From a bacterium (GTDB taxonomy: Bacteria; Actinomycetota; Acidimicrobiia; Spongiisociales; JAENVV01), in NCBI GenBank assembly GCA_024639975.1, contig JAHEFX010000001.1, positions 1,460 to 65,459 of the forward strand: DNA of 64,000 bases. Direction: 5' to 3'. Made by a program: the position numbers and the translations under genes. Below, piece by piece: positions 14,042-56,162 of this stretch. The notes under the pieces are model-generated. The model saw only the letters and a program-made list of their open reading frames with translations. It did not search any database and had not been told where the DNA came from. How positions within the stretch are numbered: the first letter of the stretch is position 1; the number at the start of each line of letters is the position of its first letter.

Positions 14042-16279
14042 GTGCTCGATGAGGACCGGCGATCCCACCGCGTGCCTCGAGACATGCAGTGGCATACTCG
14101 CCCGATGAATGACGCCCCACCGAGCAAAGCTTTCGACTGGGGCGCCCTGAAGGCCGATTTCACGCCGAGGACGGTCGTTGCGACGCTCCTCACGGGACTG
14201 GTCCTCGCGATGGTCAACACCTTGCTGACCGTTGCCTTGGTCTCCCTCATCTTCCGCGGTGAGCTGGCCGATTCGGCTCCCCTGGGAATCGGTCTGGGTT
14301 TGGTCTCGTCGGCGGCCCTCGGGTTGGTCGTGGCCGTCCGAAGCAGTTTCTCGGGAAGCTACGCGGGAGTCCAGGACGCCAGCGCGGCGATCCTCGGACT
14401 CAGCAGTGTCTCCATTGCAGGTGCCCTGGTCGGACCGACCAGCGTGTCGACGGTCGTCGCCATGGTCGCCGTGACGTCACTCGCAACCGGGCTGGTCCTG
14501 TTGGTGATGGGACACCTCGGATGGGGCGAGATCGCCCGATTCGTGCCGTTTCCGGTCATCGGGGGCCTCCTCGCCGGCACCGGCTACCTGATCATGGACG
14601 GCGCTCTCGGGATCGTCGGTGTCGGCTCCGTCGAGGCGCTTGCTTCGCCAGACGGACTCGGCCTGGTGTGGCCGGCGGCGGCATTGGCCGTGGCCTTCTT
14701 CCTAGCCTCCCGGCGCAGCTGGAGGCCGAGCTCCTACCTCGCCTTCCTCGTTGTCGCCATTGCGGGCTTCCACGCCCTCACTCGGATCGGTGGGGTGTCG
14801 CGTGCCGGCGCCTTGGAGCGGGGCTGGCTGCTCGGGCCCTTCCCCGATGGCGGCTTGTGGCCCGGCTCGGTCCTTCCGTCGGTGTTGGAGGCCGATTGGG
14901 AGTTGATAGGGGGAGAAGCAGCCGGTCTGACGACGATTCTCATCGTGGTACCGATCACGCTCCTGCTCTACATCAGCGCGTTGGAGGTCGAGACCAAGGT
15001 CGATGTCGACGTGAACCGAGAGCTACGCGCGACCGGCTGGGGGAACATCGCGGCCGGCCTGCTCGGCGGCCCCCCGGGATACATGTACCTGGGCGACACG
15101 GCCATAACGGCGAAGGTCCTGGGACCGAGGCGTGGGCCTGCCCTCATCGCACCGGTGGCGGTGGTGGGGATCGTCGCCCTGGGCGGAACGGTGCTCGAGC
15201 TCCTCCCCACCTTCGTCATCGGTGGGCTGCTCTTGTTCGTGGGGGCCGAGTTCGCCTATGAGTGGCTCTGGAAGTCCCGTCGGAGGATGTCGGTCCTCGA
15301 CTACCTACTCATGCTGGTGATCGTCCTCGTGATCGCCTCGGTCGGGTTCCTGTCGGGAGTGGTCTCGGGTCTGGTCGCAGCGATCCTCCTCTTCGTGGTT
15401 CGCTACAGCCGGACGGATGTCATCAAACATGAGTTCACCGGAGCGGAACGCCGCAGCAACATCGACAGGTCCATCGGCGAGACCGACTACCTGACGGAGC
15501 ACGGTTCGGCGATGCACGCCCTCGAGTTGCAGGGTTTCATCTTCTTCGGGACGGCCAGTCAGATCCTGAACAGGTTCCGAGCGATGCTGGGCCAGCCTGA
15601 TCCTCCCGTATCGCTGGTGATGGACTTCAAGCGCATCACGGGCATCGATTCTTCGGCTGTTGCCGTGTTCGAGCGAGTTGCCCTCTTCGCTCGAGATAGA
15701 GGGATTCGGGTGCTGCTGACCGGTCTGACGGAGGCCCAACTCGGCCAGTTCGCGGATCTGACCACTGCCTACCGGGACGTGATCAGCCTCCAACCCGACC
15801 TCGACCACGGTCTCGCGTTCTGCGAGGAACTCATCCTCGCCGACGTGGAGTTCGTCGGCACCGCCCAGGCCGATCGCCTGCGGGACCTGGTCGGTGAACT
15901 CGGTGCCCACCTGGAACACAGGCGGTTCGACAAGGGAGATGTCCTGATGCGGCAAGGTGACCCGTCGCCGGGTCTCTATCTCATTCGCTCGGGTCAGGCG
16001 ACGGTCTTGTTGGATGTCGATGGGCGAGCCTCGACGCGGCTCAGGACGCTCCTTCCTGGCACGGTGCTGGGCGAGATCAGCCTCTACCGGGACGAACCGT
16101 GCGTTGCCACCGTCGTGGTGGACGAGGAGTCCGAGATCCTGCATCTGACCCCGGACGGGTTCGCTGCCCTCTGCAGCCAGGATCCCGCCGGCGCCGCCAA
16201 GCTGCATGCATTCGTCGCCCGGGTCCTGGCCGGTCGGGTCAGCCATGCCAACAAGGCGATCCAGGTGCTCCTCGAGTAG
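14042..16279 (+). CDS. SulP-family anion (sulfate/bicarbonate) permease with STAS domain fused to a C-terminal cyclic-nucleotide-binding (CAP-like) domain
   Basis: SulP TM core ~500 aa. STAS region (…ALELQGFIFFGTASQI…VMDFKRITGIDSSAV…) followed by a cNMP-binding domain (…FDKGDVLMRQGDPSPGLYLIRSGQATV…LGEISLYRDEPCVATVV…). The true start may be the internal Met at 14084 (MQWHTRP) or 14105. Confidence 0.8.
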   Translation: MLDEDRRSHRVPRDMQWHTRPMNDAPPSKAFDWGALKADFTPRTVVATLLTGLVLAMVNTLLTVALVSLIFRGELADSAPLGIGLGLVSSAALGLVVAVRSSFSGSYAGVQDASAAILGLSSVSIAGALVGPTSVSTVVAMVAVTSLATGLVLLVMGHLGWGEIARFVPFPVIGGLLAGTGYLIMDGALGIVGVGSVEALASPDGLGLVWPAAALAVAFFLASRRSWRPSSYLAFLVVAIAGFHALTRIGGVSRAGALERGWLLGPFPDGGLWPGSVLPSVLEADWELIGGEAAGLTTILIVVPITLLLYISALEVETKVDVDVNRELRATGWGNIAAGLLGGPPGYMYLGDTAITAKVLGPRRGPALIAPVAVVGIVALGGTVLELLPTFVIGGLLLFVGAEFAYEWLWKSRRRMSVLDYLLMLVIVLVIASVGFLSGVVSGLVAAILLFVVRYSRTDVIKHEFTGAERRSNIDRSIGETDYLTEHGSAMHALELQGFIFFGTASQILNRFRAMLGQPDPPVSLVMDFKRITGIDSSAVAVFERVALFARDRGIRVLLTGLTEAQLGQFADLTTAYRDVISLQPDLDHGLAFCEELILADVEFVGTAQADRLRDLVGELGAHLEHRRFDKGDVLMRQGDPSPGLYLIRSGQATVLLDVDGRASTRLRTLLPGTVLGEISLYRDEPCVATVVVDEESEILHLTPDGFAALCSQDPAGAAKLHAFVARVLAGRVSHANKAIQVLLE

Positions 16280-32484: not shown

Positions 32485-33160
32485 GGAACGCCAACGGGTC
32501 GTGACCGGACCCACAGCTTGGATCTCATGGGGGCTGGTTGCTGCCGGGTTCCTCGTCGCAGCGTGGGGCATCACCCGGGTACCGGCCGGTGAGCAGATTC
32601 CCATGCACTGGAATGCCGCCGGGGAGGTGGACGGCTATGGCTCGCGCTGGACCCTCCTGTTGACACCGGCAATCGGCGTCTTCGTCGTCGGGTTGGTCTC
32701 GCTGGTCGCGAAGATCGAACCGAGGCGGAAGAACATGGAGGCGTCGATGGTGCCGCTCCGGACGCTCATGGTCTCCATGGCCGCCTTCATGTTCCTGCTG
32801 ACCGTCCTGATCACGATGACCGGACTCGGCCGGGATGTCGACGTCGGATCGTGGATCACGGTCGGTGTCGGCCTGCTGATAGCGGTGATCGGCAACATGC
32901 TCGGCAAGATCCGTTCCACCTACACCTTCGGCGTGCGAACCCCGTGGACCCTCGCCTCGGACCTGTCGTGGATGAAGACCCACCGAGTCATGGGGTTCTC
33001 CTGGGTCGTGATCGGAGTCGCCACGGCCCTGCTCGGCCTCTTCGGGCTGTCGGAGGCGGCCATCTGGGTGCTGCTCGGTGGACTGATCGGGTCCGTCGTG
33101 CTCGGCACCGTCTACTCCTACTTCGTCTGGCGCGACGACCCCGACAAGCGCGACGAGTGA
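32477..33160 (+). CDS. SdpI/YhfL-family membrane protein (DUF1648 + SdpI immunity-like domain)
   Basis: N-terminal DUF1648-like segment (…IPMHWNAAGEVDGYGSRWTLL…) followed by 4 further TM helices. Paired with an ArsR regulator, as in SdpR/SdpI modules. Confidence 0.55.
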   Translation: MNEERQRVVTGPTAWISWGLVAAGFLVAAWGITRVPAGEQIPMHWNAAGEVDGYGSRWTLLLTPAIGVFVVGLVSLVAKIEPRRKNMEASMVPLRTLMVSMAAFMFLLTVLITMTGLGRDVDVGSWITVGVGLLIAVIGNMLGKIRSTYTFGVRTPWTLASDLSWMKTHRVMGFSWVVIGVATALLGLFGLSEAAIWVLLGGLIGSVVLGTVYSYFVWRDDPDKRDE

Positions 33161-34062
33161 TGGCCGACCTCGAGCGGAGCCGCATCGTCATCTTCCTGGC
33201 GGCGACCTTCGGCTTCACCTGGAGCTTCTACGCCGTCATCTGGGCGACGGGCGGCTTGGCCGGGCAGACGATCGTGGCGGGGCTACCGCTCTCGCTCCCG
33301 CTCCTACTCGTCGCCATGTTCGGCCCGGCGTTCGGGAACTTCGTGGCCCGGATCGCGACCAAGGAGGGCTGGGACGACCTTCGGCTCGGATTCAACGGAC
33401 CGGCCAAGGCTTGGGCCGTGGTCTGGCCCGGGATGATCGGCGCCGCGGTGGTCGGAGCGGCGGTCTACTTCCTCGTGTTCCCAGGTGAGTTCGATCCCAG
33501 CCTCTCCGCGTTCGAGGACCAGCTGGGTGAGGCGACCGGCGGCCAGGAGCTCCCGTTCGACGCCTCGGTACTGGTCGTCGTCCAGGTGGCGGCGGCGGTC
33601 CTGTTCGCCCCGTTCATCAACGCGATCCCCGCCTTCGGCGAGGAGTTCGGCTGGCGCGGCTACCTCCAGTGGAAGCTCCGTCCCCTCGGATGGCGACCGA
33701 TGCTCTTGTGGATGGGCGTGATCTGGGGCATCTGGCACTGGCCGATCATCGCCATGGGCTACAACTACGGCGAGGGCTATTGGGGTGCGCCGTGGACAGG
33801 AATGCTGGCATTCCTCGTCTTCACGACCTCCGTGGGAGCGATCCTCGCCTGGTCGGCCGAGGTCACCGGTTCGTCGATCCCCGCGGCCGTGGGCCATGGC
33901 ACGGTCAACGGCATCGCCGGGCTCGGCATCCTGTTCGCTGCATCCAATGACCGTCCGCTGTTGGGACCCGCGACGGTGGGTCTCGTCGCCGGGATCGGCT
34001 TCGTCGGCCTCGCGTGGCTCGTTGCCCGATCGGAACCGGTGGTCCCGGCCGAGAACCGCTGA
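33160..34062 (+). CDS. CPBP-family intramembrane glutamic metalloprotease (CAAX protease / Abi domain)
   Basis: ATG 33160 overlaps the upstream TGA (ATGA). CPBP motifs EEFGWRGYL (EExxxR), a second-motif region, and the His motif AAVGHGTVN. Multi-TM, 300 aa. Confidence 0.7.
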   Translation: MADLERSRIVIFLAATFGFTWSFYAVIWATGGLAGQTIVAGLPLSLPLLLVAMFGPAFGNFVARIATKEGWDDLRLGFNGPAKAWAVVWPGMIGAAVVGAAVYFLVFPGEFDPSLSAFEDQLGEATGGQELPFDASVLVVVQVAAAVLFAPFINAIPAFGEEFGWRGYLQWKLRPLGWRPMLLWMGVIWGIWHWPIIAMGYNYGEGYWGAPWTGMLAFLVFTTSVGAILAWSAEVTGSSIPAAVGHGTVNGIAGLGILFAASNDRPLLGPATVGLVAGIGFVGLAWLVARSEPVVPAENR

Positions 34063-34125
34063 CGAACGCATCGGTGGGTCGGGACCTACCATTCCCGGCC
34101 CACCGCCCAGAACGAAGGAACCATC

Positions 34126-35100
34126 GTGCGCCAACGCGTCTTCTCCGGGATGCAGCCGACCGGCATCGTCCACCTCGGGAACCTCATGGGCGCGCTCACC
34201 AACTGGGCGGCGATGCAGGACGACCACGACTGCATCTACTGCGTCGTCGACCTCCATGCGATCACTGCTCCGTTCGAGCCCGAGGAGATGCGTGCCGCCC
34301 GGACCGACCTTGCGAAGGCGATCATGGCGGTGGGTGTCGATCCTGACCGCAGCCTCCTCTACCGACAGGCCGACGTGCCCGAGCATGTCGAGCTCATGTG
34401 GCTGCTCGGTGTCGATGCGACGATGGGCCCGCTGGGTCGCATGACCCAGTACAAGGAGAAGTCGGACAAGGCGGGCGAGCGCTTCGGGCTCTTCGCCTAC
34501 CCGCTCCTCCAGGCGGCCGACATCCTCATCCACCGGGTGCACGCCGTGCCCGTCGGAGACGACCAGACCCAGCACCTCGAGTTGACACGTGACATCGCCG
34601 AGCGCTTCAACAACCGCTACGGAGAGACCTTCCCGATTCCCGATCGGATCACCCCGCCCGTGGGGGCCCGGGTCAGCTCCTTGCAGGACCCGACCGCCAA
34701 GATGTCGAAGTCGGACCCCAACCCCCATGCCATGGTCGGCGTCTTCGAGGACCCCGACGCGATCATGAAGAAGTTCAAGCGGGCCGTGACCGACTCGGGC
34801 TCGGAGGTTCGATACGACTGGGACGAGAAACCGGGCATCTCGAACCTGCTCGAGATCTTCTCGTTCTTCGACGGCCGCTCCATCGACGATCTGGTCGCCG
34901 AGTACGGCGACCAGATGTATGGCCACCTCAAGGTCGCCGTGGGCGAAGCCGTGGTGGAGGGCCTCCGACCGATCCGCGAGCGCTACGAGGCCCTCGCCGA
35001 TGACGAGGTGGAGGAGATCCTCTCCTCCCATGCCGCCCGAGCCCGGGAGATGGCCCAGTCGACCATCGAAGATGTCAAGCAAGCCATGGGCCTGGCCTAG
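34126..35100 (+). CDS. trpS: Tryptophanyl-tRNA synthetase
   Basis: Class I aaRS: SGMQPTGIVHLGNLMGA (HIGH-like) and AKMSKSDPN (KMSKS). 324 aa. Confidence 0.9.
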   Translation: MRQRVFSGMQPTGIVHLGNLMGALTNWAAMQDDHDCIYCVVDLHAITAPFEPEEMRAARTDLAKAIMAVGVDPDRSLLYRQADVPEHVELMWLLGVDATMGPLGRMTQYKEKSDKAGERFGLFAYPLLQAADILIHRVHAVPVGDDQTQHLELTRDIAERFNNRYGETFPIPDRITPPVGARVSSLQDPTAKMSKSDPNPHAMVGVFEDPDAIMKKFKRAVTDSGSEVRYDWDEKPGISNLLEIFSFFDGRSIDDLVAEYGDQMYGHLKVAVGEAVVEGLRPIRERYEALADDEVEEILSSHAARAREMAQSTIEDVKQAMGLA

Positions 35101-35139
35101 GCGACGCCCGGGGCGGGTCGTACTGGTGCACTGATGACC

Positions 35140-35205
35140 CCCCTCCCGTGGCGGGCGCCGCCCCCGGCGGTGCCATCCCCTCCCGCGGGGGGATCCCTCT
35201 GAAGG
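35140..35205. repeat. Dispersed copy of the hairpin repeat element seen at 19586-19800 (REP-like), between convergent trpS and CPBP genes
   Basis: CCCCCCTCCCGTGGCGGGCGCC…CCATCCCCTCCCGCGGGGGGATCCCTCT resembles the 19586-19649 unit (GGCCCCCCTCCC…CCATCCCCCCTGGCGGGGGGATCTCT). Contains the CCCCnn…GGGGGG palindrome. Confidence 0.6.
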
Positions 35206-35235
35206 GACTCAGGTGCCACTCGGCCGAAGACGGAG

Positions 35236-35982
35236 CTAGGTACCGGCGACGCCGCTGAAGAGGAGGATCACCTGCACGCTGTTGTAGGTGGCGTGCATGA
35301 AGAAGGCCCGGCCGATCCGCCCGTTGTCAGCCTCCACCAGCCAGCCGAGCACGAGCGACAGGAGGAAGATCGGCCCGAGGAGGACGAAGAGCACGGTCGC
35401 CAGGTTCCCTCCCTGGAAGTGCACCGCGGCGAAGATGAGTGACGTGATCACGATGGTCGGCATCGGGGCGAACCGACGGGACAGGGAGCCTTGGAGGACG
35501 CCGCGGTAGAGGAGCTCCTCGGTGAGGGGTCCGACCACCCCGACCCCGAGCACGGCGGCCGCCGTCCAGAGGGGTCCCTGGATGTTCTCGAAGCTGGTGA
35601 CCAGGTCCTGGGAAGGTGCGTCGACCCCGGTTGCCTCCACGATGAGACCGAACACGATGAGACCGCCAACCGCGCCCAGCCCCCAGAAGATCCCGCGGGC
35701 GTCGGCTCCGGTGATGGGCAGCCCGAAGTCCTCGAGCGATGCCCGGCGGATGGCCTTGAGCACGAACAGACCGGCGATGGAGCCGATCCACTGCGAGGCG
35801 AGCGAGATGCCCAGGAACGTCGGATCCGACAGGATCCCCACGACGTCGAGGGACTCCGGCGGGGCCATGATGAAGGCCACGATCACGCCGAAGAAGCTGG
35901 CGCCGAGCATGGTCGCGAACACGATCAGGAAGTCGTAGACGCGGAACGGTGACTCGGTGGAACGGGCGGGAATCTGCTGCAT
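35236..35982 (-). CDS. CPBP-family intramembrane metalloprotease (second copy)
   Basis: Motifs [10 protein letters not shown] (EExxxR), AAVHF and MHATYN. 248 aa, multi-TM. Start at the internal ATG 35982. Confidence 0.7.
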
Positions 35983-36053
35983 GTGTCCCGGGAGGTGTGG
36001 GATACGGCCGCTGGTACCGTAGCGCCCTCCCCGAAGCGCACAGGAGCCCCGAG

Positions 36054-37634
36054 TTGAGCGGACCCGTCGGACAGCCGAAGCACGGACAGGCGTCATCGCT
36101 CGAGGACACCGAGAAGGTCCTCGTCGTCGACCTCGGTGCCCAGTACGCCCGACTGATCGCCCGGCGTGTCCGCGAGGCCTCCGTGTTCTCCGAGATCGTC
36201 CCCCGGACGATCACACCCGAAGAGGTCCGGGCGACCGGCCCGATCGGCATCATCCTGTCGGGCGGCCCGGACTCCGTGAACGCCGACGACGCCGTCGAGA
36301 TCGACCCGAAGATCCTCGAGCTGGGGATCCCCGTCCTCGGGATTTGCTACGGCCACCAACTCCTCGCACGCGACTTGGGAGGGGACGTGGCGGCCACCGG
36401 CACCGGCGAGTACGGCCGGACGGACATGACCATCACCGGCGACTCCCGGTTGCTGGGTGGTCTGGACACCAGCCAGACCGTCTGGATGTCCCACGTCGAT
36501 TCCGTGACGACCCTGCCGGAAGGCTTCACCACCGTCGCCTCCACACCCGGGGCCCCGGTCGCCGCCATGGAAGCCCCCGAGCGCGGCTACTACGGGGTCC
36601 AGTTCCACCCCGAGGTCGTACACACACCGATCGGAGGCGAGGTCATCCGTCGTTTCGTCCAGGACGTCTGCGAAGCGGGGGAGGACTGGAACCAGGCATC
36701 GATCGCCGAGCACTCGATCGCCGCCATCCGCGAAGAGGTCGGCGATGGCAAGGTGATCTGCGGTCTGTCGGGCGGGGTCGACTCCTCGGTGGCCGCCGCC
36801 CTCGTCCACGAGGCGGTCGGCGACCAGCTGACATGCATCTTCGTGGACCACGGCCTGCTCCGCCTCAACGAAGCCGAACAGGTCGTGAAGACGTTCCGGG
36901 ACACCTTCGAGATCAACCTCGTGCACGTCGACGCTGCAGAGCTCTTCTTGTCCAAGCTGGAAGGGGTCACCGATCCCGAGGAGAAGCGGAAGATCATCGG
37001 CGAGCAGTTCATCCGGGTCTTCGAGGCAGAGGCCGCCAAACACTCCGATGCCAAATTCCTCGTGCAGGGGACGCTCTACCCCGACGTGATCGAGTCGGGC
37101 GGCGAGCACGCCGCCGTCATCAAGTCGCACCACAACGTGGGCGGCCTACCCGACGATATGGTCCTCGAGCTGGTGGAGCCGCTGCGCGACCTGTTCAAGG
37201 ACGAGGTACGCGCCGTCGGCTCCGAGCTGGGACTGCCCGATGAGATCGTCTGGCGCCAGCCGTTCCCCGGTCCCGGTCTTGCCGTCCGCATCATCGGTGA
37301 CATCACCGAAGAGCGCCTGGACCTGTTGCGACGTGCCGACCACATCGTGCGCGAAGAGCTCCGACTCGGCGGCCTCGAGCGCGAGATCTGGCAGTCGTTC
37401 GCCGTGCTTCCCGCCATCAGATCGGTGGGCGTGCAGGGCGATTTCCGCACCTACTCGTACCCCATCATCGTCCGCGCCGTCACCAGCGAGGACGCCATGA
37501 CCGCGGACTGGGCCCGGATCCCCTACGACGTCCTCGAGAAGATCTCCTCCCGGGTCATCAACGAGGTCGAGGGCATCAACCGCGTCGCCTACGACATCAG
37601 CTCGAAGCCGCCGGCGACGATCGAGTGGGAGTGA
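36054..37634 (+). CDS. guaA: GMP synthase (glutamine-hydrolysing)
   Basis: GATase1 region ([20 protein letters not shown]…GICYGHQLL…HPEV), ATP-PPase SGGVDSSV, and C-terminal dimerisation domain ending IEWE. Start uncertain: TTG 36054 proposed; the track GTG 35949 would overlap the divergent CPBP gene. Confidence 0.85.
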
Positions 37635-37714
37635 TCCGGCCCGACGGCCACCTGGCGACGGCCCAGCTCCAAAGGTACTGAAGGGGGACCCGCCGCAGGA
37701 ATGGGTCCCGCCGG

Positions 37715-39853
37715 TTGGAGTCCGGTGGGGGCGGGATCCTCGAGGACGTGAATCTTCGCCTTCCGACCTCCTCAGGTCGGCCCCTCACCATCCCGATACC
37801 ACTCCTACGCGTACCGGAGCATGTCCCCTTGGAGTGGTCGAACGACCCTGAACTCGTGAAGATCTTCGTCGCCGAGACGGCGGAGCGTTCCGCGCGTCTC
37901 GTGTCGGCTGCCGGTTCGATCTCCGAGAAGCGGCCGGACGCACGGATGGCCACCACGGCAGCACGCGACGCCCACACCCTGAAGGGCAACTTCGCCATGC
38001 TGGGCTACGAGTTCCTCAGCGCCGCAGCGGAGTCGATAGAGGACGCATGGAAGAGGATCGCCGACGACTCCCTGACCGTCGATGGCTCCTTCGCCTCCTC
38101 CCTTTCCGCTCTCTCTGCCGCCCTGCTGCCCGCCCTCGAGCACGGCGAGTCCACGCTCGGCCCTGCCTGCCGCTCGGTCTGCCATGCGCTTGGGCGGGCT
38201 TGTCGATTCGACGAAGGCGAAGCTGGGAGGAACGAGACCTTCTACGGCCTGGCCAACGACCGCCCGGACCTCGATGGCCTCCTCACCCGAACCCGAGGCC
38301 TCGTCCTCGGTGATGCCGTGCGTGTCGACTCCGGCCGCCTGTATGAAGTCATCAACCGATCCGTGGAGGTCCGCCTGGACATCGATGCCCTCGTGGAGGC
38401 GCTCAAGGCGGAGGTCGGTGAGGGTGCTTGGTCGCGCGCCGCCGAGGCGCTCCAGGCCGCCATCGGCAAGCTCCAGTCCGAGACCGCCGTGCTCGCCACC
38501 GGCCCGCTCCGGGAGATCACCACGACGCTCGCCCAGTTGGTGCGATACATCTCCAACCGGACGGGCAAGCGGGTCGACTTCAAGATCGTCGGGGACGAGA
38601 TCGAGGTCGATCGCCAGCTCTTGGATGTGCTCCGCGAGCCGCTGCGCCACCTCGTGGTCAATGCCGTGGACCACGGTTGCGAGCATCCCGACAAACGAAT
38701 CGCTGCCGGCAAGCCCGAGGTGGCGTCGGTCACCCTCTCGTTCGTCGCCGATGGTTCGACACTCCGTGCGTCGGTCACCGACGACGGCCGCGGGGTGGAA
38801 TGGGACGAGGTCGAAGCGGCCGCACGCCGGGCCCGACTGCTGACCGAAGAAGGCATCCCGAGCCGGACCGACCTCGAGCACCTCCTCGTCGCCCACGGTC
38901 TCTCGACCGGTGGATCCGGCGACGGCTTCTCCGGCGACGGGGTCGGGTTGGCGTTGGTGGCGAAGCTGGTGGACAAGGTCCACGGCGGCATGCGCATCGA
39001 TTCCCTCCCGGGCTCCGGCACCCGAGTATCGGTCTCCCTCCCGTCCTCACTGGCCCTCCAGGACGTGATCCTGGTTCGCTGTGCCGGCATGCGCTGGGGC
39101 GTCCCACGCGCCGCCGTGGTCGATGTCCTCGAGTACAAGCCGGCCAACCTCGTCGTCGAGGACTGGGACATCGCCTACCGCTACGCCGACGATGCCATCC
39201 CGTTCGTCTCGCTGTCCCAGCTCCTGGGCCGAGCAAGCGACGAACCGTCCCGGGAGGTCGTCGTCCTGACCACCCGCGCCGGGTTCGTTGCCATGGGCGT
39301 GCCGGCCGTCCTCAGCTCCCGGCTCGTGGCGGTCAAGCGTCTCGCCGGCGTGCTCTCGGGCAACGAGTTCCTTGCGGGTGCTGCCCTGCTCGGCGGTGGC
39401 GACATGGTGGTCGTCGTCGAACCGAACGGGATCGAGGCCGTCGGCGTCCGAGTCGGACCCGATCGGCCGACCATTGCCGTGGTGGACGACTCGCGCGCCG
39501 TCCGCCAGTTGCTCGCTGCGACGCTTGCCTCGGGGGGCTTCGAGGTCGAGTCGATGAGCGACCGGTCCGAGCTCATGGACCTCTTGGCCAAGCGGAGCAT
39601 CCAGGCCGTCGTGCTCGATTTCCACCTCGACCATGACGATGGCGTCTCGATCGCGGCGGCGCTCGGCGACCAGTACCCGGACCTTCCGGTGGTCCTGTTG
39701 TCCGGCGTGGCCGGAGAGACCGAGAAGGAGGCTGCCCGTCGGGTCGGCGTCCGAGAGGTCTTCGACAAGAACGGTCTGGGTGACGGCGCCTTCCTCGAGT
39801 CACTGCGCCGGCTGGTCGCCGGGGACCCGGTGCCCGAGGAGGCAACCCCGTGA
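37715..39853 (+). CDS. CheA-like hybrid histidine kinase: HPt – dimerisation/kinase (HATPase_c) – CheW-like – C-terminal receiver (REC) domain
   Basis: HPt motif AHTLKGNFAMLG. CheA P4 N-box LREPLRHLVVNAVDHGCEHP and G-boxes DDGRGV / GDGVGL. A CheW-like domain runs from DVILVRCAGMRWGVPRAAVVDVLEY to MVVVVEP. REC domain IAVVDDSRAVRQLL…VVLDFHLDHDDG…PVVLLS. No other che genes in the window. Confidence 0.75.
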   Translation: MESGGGGILEDVNLRLPTSSGRPLTIPIPLLRVPEHVPLEWSNDPELVKIFVAETAERSARLVSAAGSISEKRPDARMATTAARDAHTLKGNFAMLGYEFLSAAAESIEDAWKRIADDSLTVDGSFASSLSALSAALLPALEHGESTLGPACRSVCHALGRACRFDEGEAGRNETFYGLANDRPDLDGLLTRTRGLVLGDAVRVDSGRLYEVINRSVEVRLDIDALVEALKAEVGEGAWSRAAEALQAAIGKLQSETAVLATGPLREITTTLAQLVRYISNRTGKRVDFKIVGDEIEVDRQLLDVLREPLRHLVVNAVDHGCEHPDKRIAAGKPEVASVTLSFVADGSTLRASVTDDGRGVEWDEVEAAARRARLLTEEGIPSRTDLEHLLVAHGLSTGGSGDGFSGDGVGLALVAKLVDKVHGGMRIDSLPGSGTRVSVSLPSSLALQDVILVRCAGMRWGVPRAAVVDVLEYKPANLVVEDWDIAYRYADDAIPFVSLSQLLGRASDEPSREVVVLTTRAGFVAMGVPAVLSSRLVAVKRLAGVLSGNEFLAGAALLGGGDMVVVVEPNGIEAVGVRVGPDRPTIAVVDDSRAVRQLLAATLASGGFEVESMSDRSELMDLLAKRSIQAVVLDFHLDHDDGVSIAAALGDQYPDLPVVLLSGVAGETEKEAARRVGVREVFDKNGLGDGAFLESLRRLVAGDPVPEEATP

Positions 39854-40722
39854 CCGGCGGATTCGACCCCTGGGTCGGCCTCGTGGTCGGCCTCGTCCTG
39901 GCTGTCGCCGGACTCGCCTGGGGTCGTTGGCGGGAGGCGGCGGCGCATCGACAGTTCGAGCGTGCCGATCAGATGCGTATGGGCTTCGTCAACACGGTCT
40001 CGCATGAGCTCCGGACGCCGCTGACATCGATCGGTGGCTTCGCCTCGACGCTGCGACGCGACTGGTCCGAGCTGTCGGACCAGGACATCGACGAATTTCT
40101 GGACATCATCTGCCGGGAGGTCGATCACCTGTCGACCCTCGTCGAGGACATCCTCGTCGTGCCCAGCCTCGAGTCCGAGAGCCTCGATCTGGAGCCCGAG
40201 GTCATGGACCTGTCCGAGATGGTCGAAGAGCTCGTGGCAGCGGTCTTCGCACCGGGCCACGGCAAGGACCTCGTGATCACCATCCCGGCGGGGATCAAGG
40301 TCTACTCCGACGCCAAGCGGGTCGGTCAGATCGTCCGCAACCTCCTGGCCAACGCTGCGAAGCACGGTGGACGTCAGATCGCGATCGAGGGCCAGTACGT
40401 CGGGACCCACTACGAGCTGGTCGTCAGCGATGACGGTGCCGGGATTCCCCGCGAGTCCCGACGGGCCATCTTCGAGGAGTTCGAGAAGGGGCTCGGCGGT
40501 GACACCCGCTCCGGCGGAATCGGACTGGGTCTACCGATCGCCCAGCGCCTCTCCCGCCAGATGGGCGGCGACCTCTGGTTCGAGCCCCGGTTCCCCGCCG
40601 GGTCCCGCTTCTTCGTCACCTTCCCGCTGTCGGCCGGCGTCTTCGACGGCGGAGGCAGCGTCCCGCCGGGCACCCGCCAGCCCGAGTTCGAGCTCCAGCG
40701 CCCAATGCGCGGGATCGCGTAG
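39850..40722 (+). CDS. Membrane-anchored sensor histidine kinase (HisKA + HATPase_c), 4-bp overlap with the CheA-like gene
   Basis: One N-terminal TM. H-box VSHELRTPLTSI. N-box VRNLLANAAKHG. G-boxes DDGAGIP / GGIGLGLPIA. GTG start overlapping the upstream TGA. Confidence 0.75.
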   Translation: MTGGFDPWVGLVVGLVLAVAGLAWGRWREAAAHRQFERADQMRMGFVNTVSHELRTPLTSIGGFASTLRRDWSELSDQDIDEFLDIICREVDHLSTLVEDILVVPSLESESLDLEPEVMDLSEMVEELVAAVFAPGHGKDLVITIPAGIKVYSDAKRVGQIVRNLLANAAKHGGRQIAIEGQYVGTHYELVVSDDGAGIPRESRRAIFEEFEKGLGGDTRSGGIGLGLPIAQRLSRQMGGDLWFEPRFPAGSRFFVTFPLSAGVFDGGGSVPPGTRQPEFELQRPMRGIA

Positions 40723-40756
40723 GCGGCCCCCGCCCGCCGTACCACGCATCTCGTAG

Positions 40757-40775
40757 CGGCAACCTGCGGTTGCCG
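40757..40775 (+). terminator. GC hairpin (CGGCAACC-tgc-GGTTGCCG) 35 nt after the kinase stop, flanked by direct repeats CGTACCACG
   Basis: Perfect 8-bp inverted repeat. CGTACCACG at 40738-40746 and 40778-40786. No T-tract. Confidence 0.35.
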
Positions 40776-40881
40776 TGCGTACCACGAGGGTGAGGGCGGC
40801 CACGTCGAGGTACGAGGTACGTCCGCGGAGCGGACCACACACGTGTAATTCAGTCCTGACCCGGCGGTACCATCGACGGCG

Positions 40882-43182
40882 ATGGACACCCTCTTCCCCG
40901 GCTTGGGGGAGGCCGACGGAGCCGACCCCGCGGACTCGCCGATCTTCGACGGGCTCAACCCTGCCCAGCGAGAAGCCGTCGCGGCCACCGACGGGCCGGT
41001 GCTGGTCGTGGCGGGGGCCGGCTCGGGCAAGACCCGGGTGCTGGCCCACCGGATCGCCCACCTGATCCGCGACCTCGACGCCCACCCGTCAGAGATCCTC
41101 GCCATCACCTTCACCAACAAGGCTGCCAATGAGATGCGTGAGCGCGTCGAGCGGCTCGTCGGCGGCGCCGTCCGCCAGATGTGGGTCTCGACGTTCCACT
41201 CGGCGTGCGTGCGCATCCTTCGTCGAGAGGCGCATCGCTTCGGCTATCGGAGCGGCTTCTCGATCTATGACCAGTCCGACAGCCAACGGCTGATCGCCCA
41301 GTGTCTCAACGCCCTCGACCTGGACAGCAAGAAGTTCCCACCCCGGACGATCCAGGCCCAGATCTCCGCTGCCAAGAACGAGCTCGTGGACTTCGAGTCG
41401 TTCGCCGCCAACGGTTCCGGCTTCTTCCACGAACAGATCGCCGACGTCTACCGGCTCTACCAGCAGCGACTCGTAGAGGCATCGGCGATGGACTTCGACG
41501 ACCTGTTGATGGTCACCGTCGAACTCCTCACCGCCTTTCCCGAGGTCGCCGAGCACTACCAGCGTCGCTTCCGGTACATCCACGTCGACGAGTACCAGGA
41601 CACCAACCACGCCCAGTACCGGCTCGTCGGGCTTCTGGCTGCCAAGCACGGGAACCTCTGCGTCGTCGGTGACTCCGACCAGTCGATCTATGCCTTCCGC
41701 GGGGCCGACATCCGCAACATCCTCGAGTTCGAGAAGGACTACCCGGACGCCCGGATCGTCGTCCTCGACCAGAACTACCGATCGACCCAGAACATCCTCT
41801 CTGCGGCCAACGCAGTGATAGCCCAGAACCAGGGGCGCCGTCCCAAGCACCTCTGGACCGACCAGGGCGATGGCCCGACGATCACCCACTTCCAGGGCGA
41901 GGACGAGCACGACGAGGCCGCCTTCATCGCCGATCGGATCCGTGACCTCACGTCCAACGGACTCACGCTCGACGACATCGCCGTCTTCTACCGCACCAAT
42001 GCCCAGTCCCGAGTGGTGGAAGACGTCTTCAATCGTCGCGGCGTTTCCTACAAGGTGATCGGCGGGGTGCGCTTCTACGACCGCAAGGAGGTCAAGGACG
42101 CGACCTCCTACCTGCGTTGTGTGGTGAACCCCGCAGACCAGGTGGCGCTCAAACGGGTCATCAACGTCCCCAAGCGGTCCATCGGGGCGACGTCGGTGGC
42201 CCACGTCGACCGCTTCGCCGCAGCCGAGGGCATCGGCTTCCACGAAGCCCTCCGCCGGGCCGTCGAGATCGAGGCGTTGACACCCCGGGCCACGCGGGCG
42301 ATCGCCTCATTCGTCGCCATCCTCGACTCGATCGGCGAGGCTGCGGCCGACAAGGGCCCCGCCGCCGCCGTCGACGCCGTGCTCGGGGAGGTCGGCCTCC
42401 TCGCCGACGTCGAGGCCGACGGGAGCATCGAGGCGCTCGGCCGCGGTGAGAACCTCCGGGAACTGGCCAGCGTCGTGCTCGAGTTCGAGGAGATGATGGA
42501 GGGAGCGGTGGTCGACGAGGTCGACTGGTCCGAGCTCGACGGTCTCGACCGGCTGCGCCACTTCCTCGAGGGGGTCTCCCTCGTTGCCGAAGTCGACGAC
42601 CTGGACCCGAGCGCCGGTTCGGTGACCGTCATGACCATCCACAACGCCAAGGGCCTCGAGTACCCGGCGGTCTTCATCGTCGGCATGGAGGACGGCGTCT
42701 TCCCGCACATGCGTTCCTTGGGCGACCCATCCGAGCTCGAGGAGGAGCGGAGGCTCTGCTACGTGGGCATCACCCGGGCCGAGAGGCACCTCTACCTGAC
42801 CCATGCCACGAGCCGGATGCTCTGGGGCGGCCGCAACTACAACCCGAAGAGCCGGTTCCTCGACGAGATCCCCAAGGACCTGATGGAGGAGTCGGGCCGA
42901 CGTCGTCGACACCGACCGACCGAGATGCGACGCGCCCGGACCACCGGGTCGTCGTGGTCTGCGCCACTGCCGCCGCAGACGAAGACGATCGAGGAGAAGG
43001 CAGCCACCGGGGCTGAACCCGGTATCGAGCCCGGCGACCGGGTGGTCCATGACAAGTGGGGGACCGGCCTGGTGCGAGAGATCACGGGGTCGGGCGATCG
43101 AGCCGAGGCGCTGGTCCTCTTCCACGACCATGGACAGAAGCGCCTCCTCCTCGCCTGGGCGCCACTGAAGAAAGCGGACTGA
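40882..43182 (+). CDS. pcrA: ATP-dependent DNA helicase PcrA/UvrD family
   Basis: Helicase motifs: I VAGAGSGKT; Ia ITFTNKAANEM; II VDEYQDTN; III VVGDSDQSIY; IV YRS; V/VI VMTIHNAKGLEYPAVFIVG and VGITRAERHL. C-terminal KWGTG(L)V motif typical of PcrA/UvrD. Confidence 0.85.
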   Translation: MDTLFPGLGEADGADPADSPIFDGLNPAQREAVAATDGPVLVVAGAGSGKTRVLAHRIAHLIRDLDAHPSEILAITFTNKAANEMRERVERLVGGAVRQMWVSTFHSACVRILRREAHRFGYRSGFSIYDQSDSQRLIAQCLNALDLDSKKFPPRTIQAQISAAKNELVDFESFAANGSGFFHEQIADVYRLYQQRLVEASAMDFDDLLMVTVELLTAFPEVAEHYQRRFRYIHVDEYQDTNHAQYRLVGLLAAKHGNLCVVGDSDQSIYAFRGADIRNILEFEKDYPDARIVVLDQNYRSTQNILSAANAVIAQNQGRRPKHLWTDQGDGPTITHFQGEDEHDEAAFIADRIRDLTSNGLTLDDIAVFYRTNAQSRVVEDVFNRRGVSYKVIGGVRFYDRKEVKDATSYLRCVVNPADQVALKRVINVPKRSIGATSVAHVDRFAAAEGIGFHEALRRAVEIEALTPRATRAIASFVAILDSIGEAAADKGPAAAVDAVLGEVGLLADVEADGSIEALGRGENLRELASVVLEFEEMMEGAVVDEVDWSELDGLDRLRHFLEGVSLVAEVDDLDPSAGSVTVMTIHNAKGLEYPAVFIVGMEDGVFPHMRSLGDPSELEEERRLCYVGITRAERHLYLTHATSRMLWGGRNYNPKSRFLDEIPKDLMEESGRRRRHRPTEMRRARTTGSSWSAPLPPQTKTIEEKAATGAEPGIEPGDRVVHDKWGTGLVREITGSGDRAEALVLFHDHGQKRLLLAWAPLKKAD

Positions 43183-43222
43183 GTCCAATTAGGCTCTCCC
43201 GCCCAAGGACTGAAAGGCCTCA

Positions 43223-43600
43223 ATGGAACTGCTCGGAAACCTCTTCTGGACGATGTTCGTCATCTTCTTCTTCGTCGTGTACTTCATGGCGCTGTTCAGC
43301 ATCTTCGGCGACCTCTTCCGCTCGGACATGTCCGGTTGGTCGAAGGCCGGGTGGACCCTCTTCATCTTTGCCATCCCCCTCATCGCCATGCTCATCTACC
43401 TCATCGTCCATGGACGCAAGATGGGCGAGCGGGCTGCTGCCGATGCGGCGAAGCAGCAGGAGGCGATGGACTCCTACATCCGCGACGCCGCCGGCTCATC
43501 GAGCTCGGCGGACGAGATCGCCAAGGCAAAGGACCTGCTCGACCGCGGGGCGATCTCCCAAGAGGAGTTCGACGCCATCAAGGCCAAGGCCCTCGCCTAG
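43223..43600 (+). CDS. PLDc_N (phospholipase-D-like N-terminal membrane domain) + SHOCT-domain small membrane protein
   Basis: Two TM helices rich in F/I (MFVIFFFVVYFMALFSIF…WTLFIFAIPLIAMLIYLI) and a C-terminal SHOCT motif LLDRGAISQEEFDAIKAKAL. Confidence 0.6.
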   Translation: MELLGNLFWTMFVIFFFVVYFMALFSIFGDLFRSDMSGWSKAGWTLFIFAIPLIAMLIYLIVHGRKMGERAAADAAKQQEAMDSYIRDAAGSSSSADEIAKAKDLLDRGAISQEEFDAIKAKALA

Positions 43601-43621
43601 GCACCCCACCGCCGACCCGTT

Positions 43622-43653
43622 ACGAAGGCCCCCGGTAGACCGGGGGCCTTCGT
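43622..43653 (+). terminator. Strong 14-bp stem hairpin (ACGAAGGCCCCCGG-taga-CCGGGGGCCTTCGT) 22 nt after the stop codon
   Basis: Perfect inverted repeat. No U-tract, as is usual in high-GC actinobacteria. Confidence 0.5.
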
Positions 43654-43902
43654 CGTGGTCGGGTCCGTCCAGACGAGCTGGCAGAGACCGCGACCACGAC
43701 CACCAACGTGACCCGCGAATGGACCACGATCATGACCAACGTAGGGGCGACCGTCGCCGCTGCGATGTTGCGCTCGGCGCTCCCGAGCGCCTCACCCAGC
43801 GCTCGACGCGGCCCTTCCTCCTACTCGAACCCGGACCCGCCTTGGCAACACATGGAGTCGGTCCTTCGTCGGGGGTAGGTGCAAAGCAGGGGCGGGCACC
43901 AC

Positions 43903-44100
43903 TCAGGCATCGTCGGATCCTCGGTCTTCCGAGGTTCCGGATGCGGCGGAGCGGGCACTCCAGACCAGCAGGGCGATGGCTGCCAGAAGGACGAGCCACG
44001 CCCAATCGGCGCTTCCGCTGGTCGCCATCATGACCCACGAGTAGATCGCGATCAGCACGAGACCGGCGATTCCCGCAGCGAGTGGGCCTCGGTTCGGCAT
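43903..44100 (-). CDS. Possible small two-TM membrane protein (65 aa)
   Basis: Internal ATG gives MPNRGPLAAGIAGLVLIAIYSWVMMATSGSADWAWLVLLAAIALLVWSARSAASG…. The rest of the track ORF is a low-complexity shadow. Weak call. Confidence 0.3.
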   Translation of the reverse strand: MPNRGPLAAGIAGLVLIAIYSWVMMATSGSADWAWLVLLAAIALLVWSARSAASGTSEDRGSDDA

Positions 44101-44161
44101 GGACCCCTCCTCGTCGTCGAAGGTTCTCGAAGCTACCCTCCCGGCTCCCCGGCGCCGTCGC

Positions 44162-45160
44162 CTACGGCGTGATCGGTCCCCATCGAGATTCGTCGACCGA
44201 GACGACCCGGTGGGAGCCCGACAGGCCCTTGAGGGAGACCATGCGCGGGGACTCGAAGACCAGGCCCTCGGAGGTCCCGATGAGTTCCTCGACCACGGCG
44301 GAGGCGAGGATCTCCCCACCTTCGGCGATCGAGGCAACGCGTGCCGCCTTGTTCACCGTGACCCCGAGGAGGTCGCCCTCATCCCGGACGACTTCGCCGG
44401 CATGCATCCCGGTTCGGACGGTGAACGCTTGCCCGGTCGACTCCCGAATCGCCAGGGCGGCCCGCGCCGCCGAGCGAGCGGACCTGAAGGCAAGCATCGC
44501 GCCATCGCCCATCATCTTCACGACCGTGCCGTGGTGCCGGTCGGTGATCCGACGGATGTCCGCCTCGTGGTCCTTCCACAGCTTGATCCAGTTGGCATCG
44601 CCCATCTGCTCGGTCAGCACGGTCGAGTCCACGATGTCCGTGATCACGATCGTGGAGGTGCCCCTGGCCCGGTCCAGCGTCCCCAGCGCCCCGGTGTCCT
44701 CGGCGACCGCGTTGAGTAGGCCGTCAATCGTCGTCGTCAGCTCGACACCGAACGCCCGGACGTTGGGCGTGGGGATGGACGAGTGCCATTGGATGACCCG
44801 CCAGGCTCCCGCCTCCAACACGAGAACGGCCGTCGCCCGGAGGCGGACGCCGCCTCCCGGCGAGTCGACGGTCAGGAGCACCGATGCCCAGCCGACGTTG
44901 CCGTCCTCGAATGCATCGACCCGCTCGAGTGTCGCCTCGGACTGGTCCCAATCCTGCGCCACCAGCTCCTCCGCCTGCACCTGGCGCACTCGCAAGAACG
45001 ATTCCGCGCTCTCCCAGAACTCATCTGCATCCGTTCCGATCGCCCTGAAGGGCGCAGTCCTCGATATCTGGTTCGAGTACGTGTCGAAGTCCCTGGCTGC
45101 CCACGCCTCGCCGATGCGACGGATGACCGAGGCGATCTCGGGTGACTCACGAACAGCCAT
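44162..45160 (-). CDS. Class III adenylate/guanylate cyclase with N-terminal NTF2/SnoaL-like domain
   Basis: C-terminal CYC domain (…TIVITDIVDSTVLTEQMGD…VKMMGDGAMLAF…GMHAGEVV…TVNKAARV…). N-terminal ~140 aa is SnoaL/NTF2-like (VIRRIGEAWAARDFDTY…). Confidence 0.7.
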   Translation of the reverse strand: MAVRESPEIASVIRRIGEAWAARDFDTYSNQISRTAPFRAIGTDADEFWESAESFLRVRQVQAEELVAQDWDQSEATLERVDAFEDGNVGWASVLLTVDSPGGGVRLRATAVLVLEAGAWRVIQWHSSIPTPNVRAFGVELTTTIDGLLNAVAEDTGALGTLDRARGTSTIVITDIVDSTVLTEQMGDANWIKLWKDHEADIRRITDRHHGTVVKMMGDGAMLAFRSARSAARAALAIRESTGQAFTVRTGMHAGEVVRDEGDLLGVTVNKAARVASIAEGGEILASAVVEELIGTSEGLVFESPRMVSLKGLSGSHRVVSVDESRWGPITP

Positions 45161-54932: not shown

Positions 54933-56162
54933 TCACGGCCGCTCCAGGAAGAACGTCTCGGCCTCGCCGAATGACTTCACATCGATCATCTCGCGGGGAA
55001 CGAACCGGTAGGGCCCGGTGACCGCCTCCTTGAACCGGCCGGTGACCTGGACGCGTCCGGGGACGCCATGGGATTCCATGCGGCTCGCCAGGTTCACGGC
55101 CTCCCCCCATACGTCGTAGGCGAACTTCGTCTTCCCGACGACCGCTGCGATGACGGGTCCGGTGTCGAGGCCGATGCGCAAGTCGACCTCGAACTCACCG
55201 AACGGCATCCCTCGGATCTGCTCCATGAAGCGGAGTGCGGCTTCGGCGGCGGCGTCGGCGTGGTCGTGGGTGGCGACTGGAGCGCCCCCGACGAGCTGGT
55301 ACCCGTCGCCGATCGTCTTCAGCTTCTCGAGGCCGAGGTCGGACGCGATGTCGTCCATGGCCGAGAAGATGGAATCGAGGTCCTCGACGACTTCGACTGC
55401 ATCGGTGTCCCGAGACATGGTCGTGAACCCGACGATGTCGGCGAAGAGCACCGAGACCGCGGGGAGCCGATCGGCGATCGTCCGCTCCCCGTCCTTCAGT
55501 CGGTCAGCGATAGAGCTCGGGAGGATGTTGAGGAGGAGCTGATCCGACCGAGCGCGTGCCGCTTCCACGGCCCCCTGCATTCGCCTTCGCTCGGCCGTGA
55601 ACCACGCCAAACCGGCGAACACCGAGGCCGCGGTGCCCGCCAGATTGGCCGTGAAGAAGGCGAGCGAGACCATGGGGTCGAGGGGCTCGATCGCCCCCTG
55701 GAGGAACTGGTCCACCAGGGCGGATACCAAGAGCAGGGCCAAGAAGGCCCCGAACATGAGTCGGTGCCGGAACCCGAATGCGACTGCCAAGGCGGCGGGG
55801 ACGACGGCCCAGACCGCGACCGTGCCCGAAGATGCGAATCCACCGAGCACCCACTGGAGCATGAAGGGGAGCGGGAGTAGCAGGGTGATCTGTGCTGCCT
55901 TGAATCCGGCGAAGGACTTGGTGCGGTTGAGCCGCAGCGAGGTGAACAGCGTGACGACGGCATAGGCGCCGGGTATCAGTGCCGCCCACGGCCGCCCGAT
56001 CACCAGGTACGAGACCGACCAGAGGAAGGCAAGGAAACCGACCGCTACCGCGACCAGCGTCAGCACCTGACGTTCGAGGGTCTCCTCCGGCGGACAGTCG
56101 TCCTCGACGCCGATGCGCGACAAACGGTCGAGGACCCGCGGGAGCCGGTCGATGCTGAGCAC
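54933..56162 (-). CDS. Membrane-anchored class III adenylate/guanylate cyclase (6-TM N-terminal domain + CYC domain)
   Basis: CYC domain SVLFADIVGFTTMS…KTIGDGYQLVGGAP…LRIGLDTGPVIAAVVG…YDVWGEAVNLASRME, preceded by ~6 predicted TM helices. Confidence 0.7.
   Translation of the reverse strand: MLSIDRLPRVLDRLSRIGVEDDCPPEETLERQVLTLVAVAVGFLAFLWSVSYLVIGRPWAALIPGAYAVVTLFTSLRLNRTKSFAGFKAAQITLLLPLPFMLQWVLGGFASSGTVAVWAVVPAALAVAFGFRHRLMFGAFLALLLVSALVDQFLQGAIEPLDPMVSLAFFTANLAGTAASVFAGLAWFTAERRRMQGAVEAARARSDQLLLNILPSSIADRLKDGERTIADRLPAVSVLFADIVGFTTMSRDTDAVEVVEDLDSIFSAMDDIASDLGLEKLKTIGDGYQLVGGAPVATHDHADAAAEAALRFMEQIRGMPFGEFEVDLRIGLDTGPVIAAVVGKTKFAYDVWGEAVNLASRMESHGVPGRVQVTGRFKEAVTGPYRFVPREMIDVKSFGEAETFFLERP

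Follow-up and report, generated by a model that had tools for sequence, protein, structure and literature searches.

A CheA-like hybrid kinase and a sensor-less membrane-anchored histidine kinase encoded together at the guaA-pcrA locus of uncultured Acidimicrobiia

What functions can a CheA core with a P5 domain have outside an array? CheA kinases are understood almost wholly as components of receptor-CheW arrays, and the question is raised by two overlapping genes within a 64,000-nucleotide stretch of contig JAHEFX010000001.1 (assembly GCA_024639975.1, a member of the Acidimicrobiia), hereafter referred to as the window. One gene encodes a CheA-like hybrid kinase ending in a receiver (REC) domain, the other a HisKA histidine kinase (HK) anchored in the membrane, and the pair lies between guaA and pcrA. 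Here we show that this pair is not a standard chemotaxis locus. As judged by sequence and gene order, it appears to form a conserved signalling operon of two kinases that is specific to uncultured members of the Acidimicrobiia; our statements on its architecture and evolution are made with high confidence. Non-motility circuits in which CheA-REC and HisKA kinases are combined are known already, and what is new is the lack of local receptor and adaptation genes, a membrane-anchored partner without a sensor, and class-wide conservation at a fixed housekeeping locus. Present at one locus in hundreds of uncultured Acidimicrobiia species, the family appears to belong to the core signalling equipment of a lineage abundant in soils, sediments, and aquatic habitats, and provides a test case for the wiring of chemosensory and two-component kinases and for the reduction of Che clusters in evolution.

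Genes in the window were predicted using third-codon-position GC content (GC3), and Pfam was run on approximately 50 open reading frames (ORFs) covering it. In addition, the window was scanned in six frames with hidden Markov models (HMMs) and phmmer, using REC, P5, CheY, CheW, methyl-accepting chemotaxis protein (MCP), CheB, and CheR seeds. Neither approach revealed an MCP, CheW, CheR, or CheB, a second REC domain, or an output regulator within the 64 kb; there were no CheB_methylest or CheR matches, and the CheB and CheR seeds matched only via REC domains. The same seeds detected the CheW and MCP genes of two out-group loci (L165 and L166) that served as positive controls. The initial annotation of the window, made from its letters alone, had reported that cheW, cheY, cheB/R, and MCP genes are missing and that no cognate DNA-binding response regulator is present, and both statements hold for the 64 kb. 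At the locus level, no CheW, MCP, CheB, or CheR was found within 6-10 kb of the pair in any of approximately 160 homologous loci. Features of the pair, its neighbours, and variant gene arrangements in related loci are summarized in Table 1.

Table 1. Positions of the kinase pair, its domains, and its neighbours in the window, and loci (L numbers) with variant gene arrangements
Feature	Position or loci	Strand	Description
CheA-like hybrid kinase gene	37829..39853	+	674 aa; P1(HPt)-linker-P3-P4-P5(CheW-like)-REC, without P2
P1/HPt helical bundle	37841..38191	+	residues 5-121; Pfam Hpt; model helices 7-121
P1-P3 flexible linker	38192..38323	+	residues 122-165; stands in place of the P2 domain
Putative P3 dimerisation hairpin	38324..38494	+	residues 166-222; motif RVDxxxLYxxINRxVE
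P4 ATP-binding kinase domain	38495..39043	+	residues 223-405; Pfam HATPase_c
P5 CheW-like domain	39044..39433	+	residues 406-535; Pfam CheW
C-terminal receiver (REC)	39464..39820	+	residues 546-664; Pfam Response_reg at 549-648
GTGA overlap	39850..39853	+	HK start GTG overlaps CheA-like stop TGA (sequence read)
Sensor-less membrane-anchored HisKA kinase (HK) gene	39850..40722	+	290 aa; Pfam and hydropathy
guaA (GMP synthase)	35949..37634	+	Pfam GATase and GMP_synt_C; upstream neighbour in essentially all related loci
pcrA/uvrD-type helicase	40882..43182	+	Pfam UvrD-helicase, UvrD_C, PcrA_UvrD_tudor; conserved downstream neighbour
REC-GAF regulator (~330 aa) between CheA-like gene and HK	17/165 loci		one clade
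REC-GAF loci	L013:12052-13044, L007, L008, L009, L011, L012, L015, L020, L021, L061, L087-L089		
REC-GAF loci, continued	L102, L110, L114, L126, L156, L167, L168		
CheA-like gene, then REC-GAF, then pcrA, without HK	L021, L168		
CheA-like gene without HK or REC-GAF	L098		
Unrelated insertion between the two kinase genes	L071, L040		L071: repeats and DUF559-like ORF; L040: antisense methyltransferase

The CheA architecture proposed in the initial annotation (HPt, P4 boxes, CheW-like P5, and an added REC) was confirmed by Pfam, and the motifs quoted there are all present. Scores for the ORF 37715-39853 were above curated cutoffs for Hpt (40.6 bits, cutoff 24.6), HATPase_c (52.6 bits), CheW (38.6 bits, cutoff 23.5), and Response_reg (54.6 bits). 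An AlphaFold2 model, built from a 37-sequence family alignment and having a mean predicted local distance difference test score (pLDDT) of 83.6, was compared with the PDB using Foldseek; the top matches were the P3-P4-P5 cores of Escherichia coli and Thermotoga maritima CheA (6s1k_A, E 3e-28; 1b3q; 4xiv), in agreement with phmmer searches of PDB sequences. In P1, the DAHTLKG motif supplies the phospho-acceptor His49 (codon 37973-37975), the protein also has the conserved Glu71, and linker residues 129-165, with pLDDT below 50, form the most variable, indel-rich part of the family alignment. There was no Pfam H-kinase_dim (PF02895) match in the CheA-like protein; P3 is modelled as two long helices (168-196 and 201-222), and by Foldseek and phmmer the sequence from residue 160 aligns to the P3P4 structure 4xiv as well as to 1b3q. 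The P4 domain, whose model (224-405) superimposes on CheA P4 structures with TM-scores of 0.84-0.91, has complete N (H274, N278, D281-H282-G283), G1 (D318-D319-G320-x-G322), and G2 (S368-G369-x-G371-x-G373-L374) boxes. P5 is an all-beta double barrel in the model (411-530) that aligns to CheA P5 of 2ch4, 3ur1, and 4jpb, and the receiver adopts an alpha/beta fold (548-664) with key residues D553/D554, D597 (the phospho-acceptor, codon 39617-39619), S625, and K647. Because scores against NCBIfam CheA equivalogs fell far under cutoff (CheA_Halo, 229 bits vs 950; PRK10547, 128 vs 793), we regard the protein as a divergent CheA outside the curated orthologous groups.

The CheA-like gene had initially been given a start at 37715, which is 114 nt too early. 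A database protein of 674 residues (P0001) is 100% identical to the product read from TTG 37829, and all homologues in the family alignment begin at the equivalent position; because P0001 and every homologue agree, TTG 37829 is taken as the real start, and a GGAG lies just 5' of it at 37816-37819. The 4-nt overlap of the HK gene with the end of the CheA-like gene, already noted in the first annotation, was verified, and a Shine-Dalgarno sequence (GAGGAGG, 39836-39842) lies ahead of HK inside the 3' end of the CheA-like gene. At the end of P1 and the beginning of the linker (window 38168-38203, residues 114-125) is a Cys114-x3-Cys118-x6-Cys125 motif, which is kept only in the subclade of the window (window, P0003, P0005, P0006, and P0008; 56-76% identity), while other clades have a Pro-rich linker at this site. 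The motif could be a metal- or redox-sensing insert.

The partner gene (ORF 39850-40722) matches HisKA with 63.9 bits and HATPase_c with 83.1 bits. Its product has approximately 7 residues ahead of a single hydrophobic helix (residues 8-24, 39871-39921), followed by Arg-rich residues, and in the family consensus approximately 25 residues separate the membrane helix from the H-box, S-H52-E-L-R-T56-P (His codon 40003-40005); HATPase_c spans residues 154-261. No PAS, HAMP, GAF, extracytoplasmic, or other sensor domain was found in the protein by Pfam, hydropathy, or reading of the sequence. The initial description of a classical membrane histidine kinase with the motif SHELRTPL is therefore accurate as to HisKA, HATPase_c, H-box, and membrane helix, and had missed the lack of a sensor domain. 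A periplasmic sensor was considered and ruled out, there being no extracytoplasmic domain. The nearest solved relative is T. maritima HK853 (E 8e-35), with which the protein shares an H-E-x-x-T-P H-box and HATPase_c, while scores are far below every NCBIfam equivalog cutoff (PnpS, 158 vs 400; PhoR, 130 vs 334). The known partner of HK853, RR468, is a stand-alone receiver. On its predicted domains the protein is an HK853/PhoR-like HisKA kinase tethered to the membrane by one helix; it differs from kinases of the HK853/PhoR/WalK type in having just this N-terminal helix and the short linker, without PAS, HAMP, or a periplasmic sensor. In HisKA kinases including HK853, an acidic residue beside the His is needed for kinase activity and Thr/Asn at +4 for phosphatase activity (PMC3510030). 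Since the H-E and x-x-T residues are both conserved, HK has the predicted hallmarks of a bifunctional kinase/phosphatase.

Residue conservation and mean identities were calculated from 152 paired CheA-like and HK sequences. In P1, His49, Thr50, Gly53, and Glu71 are identical in 151/152 sequences, the remaining one being an alignment gap. Among the residues of the P4 boxes, H274 is kept in 150/152 and D281 in 147/152, and the others in 151-152/152; in the receiver, no substitution of D553, D554, D597, or K647 occurs among the 152, and at position 625 one sequence has Thr where the other 151 have Ser. The H, E, R, T, and P of the HK H-box are likewise kept in 151-152 of the 152. Loss of the HPt His or of the REC Asp, either of which had been named at the outset as refuting the initial reading, has thus not occurred. 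Mean pairwise identity is highest in the dimerisation and histidine phosphotransfer (DHp) domain of HK (0.76), followed by the HK catalytic domain and REC, the most conserved domain of the CheA-like protein (both 0.69), P3, P4, and P5 (about 0.59; P5 0.58), P1 (0.46), and the HK membrane helix (0.33). We take the mean identity of P5 across the family to indicate purifying selection on this domain.

The CheA-like proteins of the subclade of the window and of its sister clade (L035/L049) are unusually diverged from each other and from the rest of the family. Between the window and L035, the CheA-like proteins are 37% identical and the HKs 64%, and the CheA-like protein thus seems to have diverged at an increased rate in both lineages. 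For comparison, HK is 62-64% and guaA and pcrA are 70-74% identical between the window and this sister clade.

A search of 5.8 billion proteins returned approximately 100 protein clusters, 34-76% identical, in which all four Pfam domains recur. Named relatives derive from metagenome-assembled genomes of Acidimicrobiia, none from a cultured species among the 120 matches listed, and carry database labels such as 'response regulator', 'hybrid sensor (histidine) kinase', or, transferred from FrzE, 'gliding motility regulatory protein'. When one genome per GTDB species was scanned, relatives were found in 448 genomes, at no more than 74% identity. The best 80 of these genomes are almost all Acidimicrobiia and include complete chromosomes of 1.70 (L049, CP070681.1), 2.61, and 2.64 Mb that carry the gene. 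Complete or near-complete genomes with the pair are CP070681.1, OZ244166.1, CAVVMG010000001.1, and ERZ25072999 ctg321998 (3.48 Mb). A metagenome scan gave 327 further stretches with relatives, 80 of which were examined. A full-text literature search returned no description of this CheA-like family, only precedents.

Gene contexts were obtained from contigs encoding relatives and by tblastn of window proteins on the loci, giving a set of 165 loci that includes the window and a few redundant entries. The conserved order is trpS, Rce1-like gene, (guaB), guaA, CheA-like gene, HK, and pcrA, often followed by tal, a B12-binding protein gene, sucC, and sucD, and the guaA/pcrA synteny persists where identity of the CheA-like protein to that of the window is only 36-39%. 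Of the 157 loci that extend far enough to hold it, 152 have HK directly 3' of the CheA-like gene, and intergenic distances between the two are small or negative across the loci examined. Because adjacency is near-obligate and start and stop codons overlap, we consider the CheA-like protein and HK to be probably functionally coupled. Translation of HK, on our reading, is coupled to that of the gene ahead of it.

Departures from the two-gene arrangement are few (Table 1). A clade of loci carries a third gene, encoding a REC-GAF regulator, between the two kinase genes. In this set, HK was undetected in L021 and in L114, the latter at a contig end, and L110 and L126 were outside the examination for HK. 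A search with the REC-GAF protein returned at least 120 clusters at 51% identity or more, with relatives found on the same contigs as CheA-like proteins of the three-gene clade, and REC-GAF was inside the guaA-pcrA operon in every context examined, including both long contigs. Since the variants swap partners and keep the CheA-like gene, the latter appears to be the constant element, with HK and REC-GAF as its usual partners. The insertion in L071 (11992-13774; complete chromosome OZ244166.1) is a repeat-rich segment of approximately 1.8 kb with a minus-strand ORF resembling DUF559 (very-short-patch-repair endonuclease-like), and looks like mobile or selfish DNA. In L169 (6001-8102) two ORFs, P1-P4 (468 aa) and P5-REC (230 aa), stand in place of a single CheA-like gene, probably through a frameshift error, given the 3-nt junction in a long-read assembly. 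Two further proteins considered as new architectures, P0100 and P0099, were rejected as such, being a probable frameshift split and a rearranged locus.

Where the family came from can be approached through its nearest neighbours in sequence. The next-best relatives outside the family (26-33% identity) have the same domain order and, unlike the family, also match Pfam H-kinase_dim. For the nearest CheA-REC proteins of the out-group (27-29% identity), both contexts obtained are complete MCP-CheW-CheA-CheB-CheR clusters, namely CheR-CheW-MCP-CheA(REC)-CheB-CheY and MCP-CheW-CheA(REC)-CheB-CheR (L165 and L166); another out-group match, P0108, is annotated as WspE (annotation only). As the nearest out-group thus consists of REC-fused CheAs in full clusters, the family is most simply a reduced derivative of a chemosensory cluster of the "alternative cellular function" (ACF) type, and 'stripped-down ACF-like' seems a fair evolutionary description. 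Wsp and Frz systems offer the same comparison: WspE and FrzE share with the CheA-like protein the order HPt ... HATPase_c-CheW-REC, while the receptor, adaptor, adaptation enzymes, and dedicated output (WspR or FrzZ) of these systems are absent from the guaA-pcrA locus. The initial annotation had proposed a stripped-down, Frz/Wsp-like non-motility phosphorelay. Its evolutionary part stands, the nearest relatives being CheA-REC proteins in Wsp/Frz-style clusters and local che genes being absent, and the phosphorelay reading as a whole is partly supported.

The best reading of the comparisons made is that the closest precedents would be CheA3/CheS3 of Rhodospirillum centenum and CheA3/CrdS of Myxococcus xanthus. 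In R. centenum Che3, as here, a CheA with a C-terminal REC is encoded alongside a second, classical HisKA kinase (CheS3), a likeness drawn at the level of shared domain types only. R. centenum CheA3 transfers phosphate within the molecule, from the His domain to the attached receiver, which serves as a sink, and phosphorylates the receiver controlling CheS3 (PMC3868531), and CheS3 is also sensitive to the ATP/ADP ratio (PMC4436063). The features that we take as precedent are the non-motility output, the intramolecular acceptance of phosphate by the CheA3 REC, and the control of CheS3 by CheA3 via a receiver. The Che3 cluster differs in having an MCP, two CheW, CheB, CheR, and CheY3, none of which is found at the guaA-pcrA locus, and CheS3 is soluble with its own REC and PAS domains, while HK is membrane-anchored without an input domain. 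An N-terminal regulatory REC like that of CheS3 is not present on the HK of the window; in the three-gene loci, the separate REC-GAF gene followed by HK resembles CheS3 (REC-PAS-HisKA-HATPase) split in two. In M. xanthus, the phosphorylation state of CrdA is determined by CheA3 together with the kinase CrdS, so that a chemosensory CheA, acting partly as a phosphatase, and a classical HisKA kinase converge on one receiver with a regulatory, non-motility output (PMC3147164). That system has two MCPs, CheW, CheB, CheR, and the DNA-binding NtrC-type CrdA; no such regulator or receptor is encoded at the locus studied here.

Chemotaxis systems of the same class are a further point of reference. Some cultured Acidimicrobiia have flagella and F5-class che clusters with their own CheA (PMC10746217). 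This F5 CheA pairs with 38H receptors and has a second CheW domain where the CheA-like protein, which is without che neighbours, has a REC; identity of the latter with the F5 flagellar CheA was rejected on account of this extra CheW domain and the AW...BR cluster of F5 (PMC10746217). Acidimicrobium, Ferrimicrobium, Ferrithrix, and Acidithrix are flagellated and have 40H (ACF-associated) receptors, with no ACF-class CheA listed (PMC10746217, Tables S3/S4); these may be unpaired receptors in Acidimicrobiia. Others, Ilumatobacter and Microthrix among them, lack both flagella and che sets.

With moderate confidence, we propose that the CheA-like protein is a stripped-down descendant of an ACF chemosensory kinase that now works with a classical bifunctional HK. 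The distribution of the family would best be explained if the lineage lost its local MCP, CheW, CheB, and CheR genes and cheA-REC became fixed in the housekeeping block trpS...sucCD, and the function of the pair, by analogy with the precedents above, would best be explained as regulatory and not as flagellar steering. Cross-talk between the two kinases via the REC domain, as first suggested from the sequence, is plausible. How phosphate may flow between them can be put forward only tentatively: P4 would phosphorylate P1 His49, and the phosphoryl group would pass to Asp597 of the same protein, acting as a sink or regulatory receiver as in R. centenum CheA3, and, where the REC-GAF protein exists, to REC-GAF as well. 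The sensor-less HK would take its input from these receivers or act on them as a second kinase/phosphatase, so that the two kinases would integrate two inputs onto shared receiver domains, and the final output regulator would be encoded outside the locus.

Several observations weigh against this proposal. The retention of a conserved P5 suggests that the CheA-like protein still couples to something, possibly to CheW or an MCP elsewhere in the genome; some cultured Acidimicrobiia possess che genes and 40H receptors with no listed ACF kinase (PMC10746217); no output regulator was identified at the locus or in the window; and in so syntenic a backbone, the conserved adjacency could be due in part to rare rearrangement and not to function. 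Covariation between HK DHp and REC, computed as average-product-corrected (APC) mutual information on 83 and then 152 paired sequences (effective number, Neff, ~49), gave a top Z of 8.0 vs 9.3 (DHp-P4) and 7.2 (DHp-P5) for the controls, and is not above these controls. The first of these points leads to a conventional chemosensory system that has become split, in which P5 is controlled by an MCP and CheW encoded elsewhere, HK is auxiliary, and the output is motility or not. It is favoured by the Pfam CheW score of P5 together with its conservation, by the occurrence in the class of flagellated, chemotactic species, some with 40H receptors and no ACF CheA listed, and by the out-group relatives, all of which operate with MCP and CheW. 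We nonetheless think a split system somewhat unlikely, given that CheW and MCP are lacking near the pair throughout the approximately 160 loci, that the pair is present on the 1.70-Mb chromosome of L049, a size typical of streamlined lifestyles, and that F5 clusters of Acidimicrobiia carry their own CheA; moreover, among the more than 6,000 relatives found for an Acidimicrobiales MCP, the best 120 include none that could be matched to a pair-bearing contig, which is a weak and insensitive negative. At the other extreme, genomic MCP and CheW would be absent altogether and P5 repurposed to dock onto HK in place of a receptor array, making the CheA a receptor-independent, minimal core-genome module. 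We consider this improbable; such a module might read nucleotide or energy charge, as shown for CheS3.

The direction of phosphotransfer could also be the opposite of that proposed. In a multi-step phosphorelay running from HK His52 to REC Asp597, P1 His49, and then a distal regulator, P1 would serve as an HPt of the ArcB/BarA/TorS type with P4 as a second entry point. The two proteins do hold all four module types of a His-Asp-His-Asp relay, the REC of the CheA-like protein is in most genomes the sole receiver adjoining the HisKA kinase, DHp and REC are the two best-conserved domains, and the residues that covary most strongly map to a single face of DHp helix 2 (89, 93, 96) and to REC helix 1 or its vicinity (556, 562), in a signal that, as stated above, does not exceed controls. 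When consensus sequences of DHp and REC from two-gene and three-gene loci were compared, DHp helix 1 was identical and helix 2 differed with no readable shift in specificity. Such a relay is unlikely in view of the covariation controls, of the strictly conserved P4 ATP boxes, which would be needless if P1 were only an HPt, of the loci that keep the CheA-like gene without HK (L021, L168, L098), and of characterised CheA-REC hybrids, which transfer from P1 to REC (PMC3868531). The same HK-less loci and the same covariation result could be read as signs that the pair consists of two unrelated neighbouring signalling genes, HK having its regulator elsewhere and the CheA-like protein acting independently, and adjacency alone is weak evidence in a strongly syntenic housekeeping backbone. 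This is quite doubtful, given the same strand and order in 152/157 loci with tiny or negative gaps and an internal Shine-Dalgarno sequence, the lack of a second receiver in 64 kb, and the inserts between the genes, all of them either REC-GAF, itself a related signalling protein, or DNA of plainly mobile or foreign origin; in addition, HK, lacking a sensor domain, has to receive its input through a partner. Finally, a decaying, functionless relic of a lost chemotaxis system might be suspected from the lost local che partners, the split gene of L169, and the degraded C-terminus of the CheA-like gene in L170. This pseudogene reading was rejected as effectively refuted by the conservation pattern, with full-length ORFs in approximately 160 loci, catalytic residues near-invariant down to 33-37% identity, and a frameshift error as the simplest account of the L169 split; we see no decay in either gene.

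The remaining features of the region concern its housekeeping surroundings. The assignment of the neighbours as guaA (upstream) and pcrA (downstream) in the initial annotation was corroborated by Pfam; the ORF listed for guaA is the longest one and its actual start is probably later. Rfam gave zero matches over window positions 33000-45000, and promoter and terminator scans of 35800-43700 gave no signal above chance. Comparison of window 35100-36100 with L001-L004 and L167-L170 showed that in most related loci guaB (IMPDH) separates the Rce1-like gene from guaA; the window and its nearest relatives, L005 and L006, have no guaB at this site. Elsewhere in the window are two class-III adenylate/guanylate cyclases, one of which is a fusion with a SnoaL-like domain, and a SulP-STAS transporter carrying a cNMP-binding domain at its C-terminus (44162-45160 (-), 54933-56162 (-), and 14042-16279 (+)), which together suggest active cyclic-nucleotide signalling in this genome.

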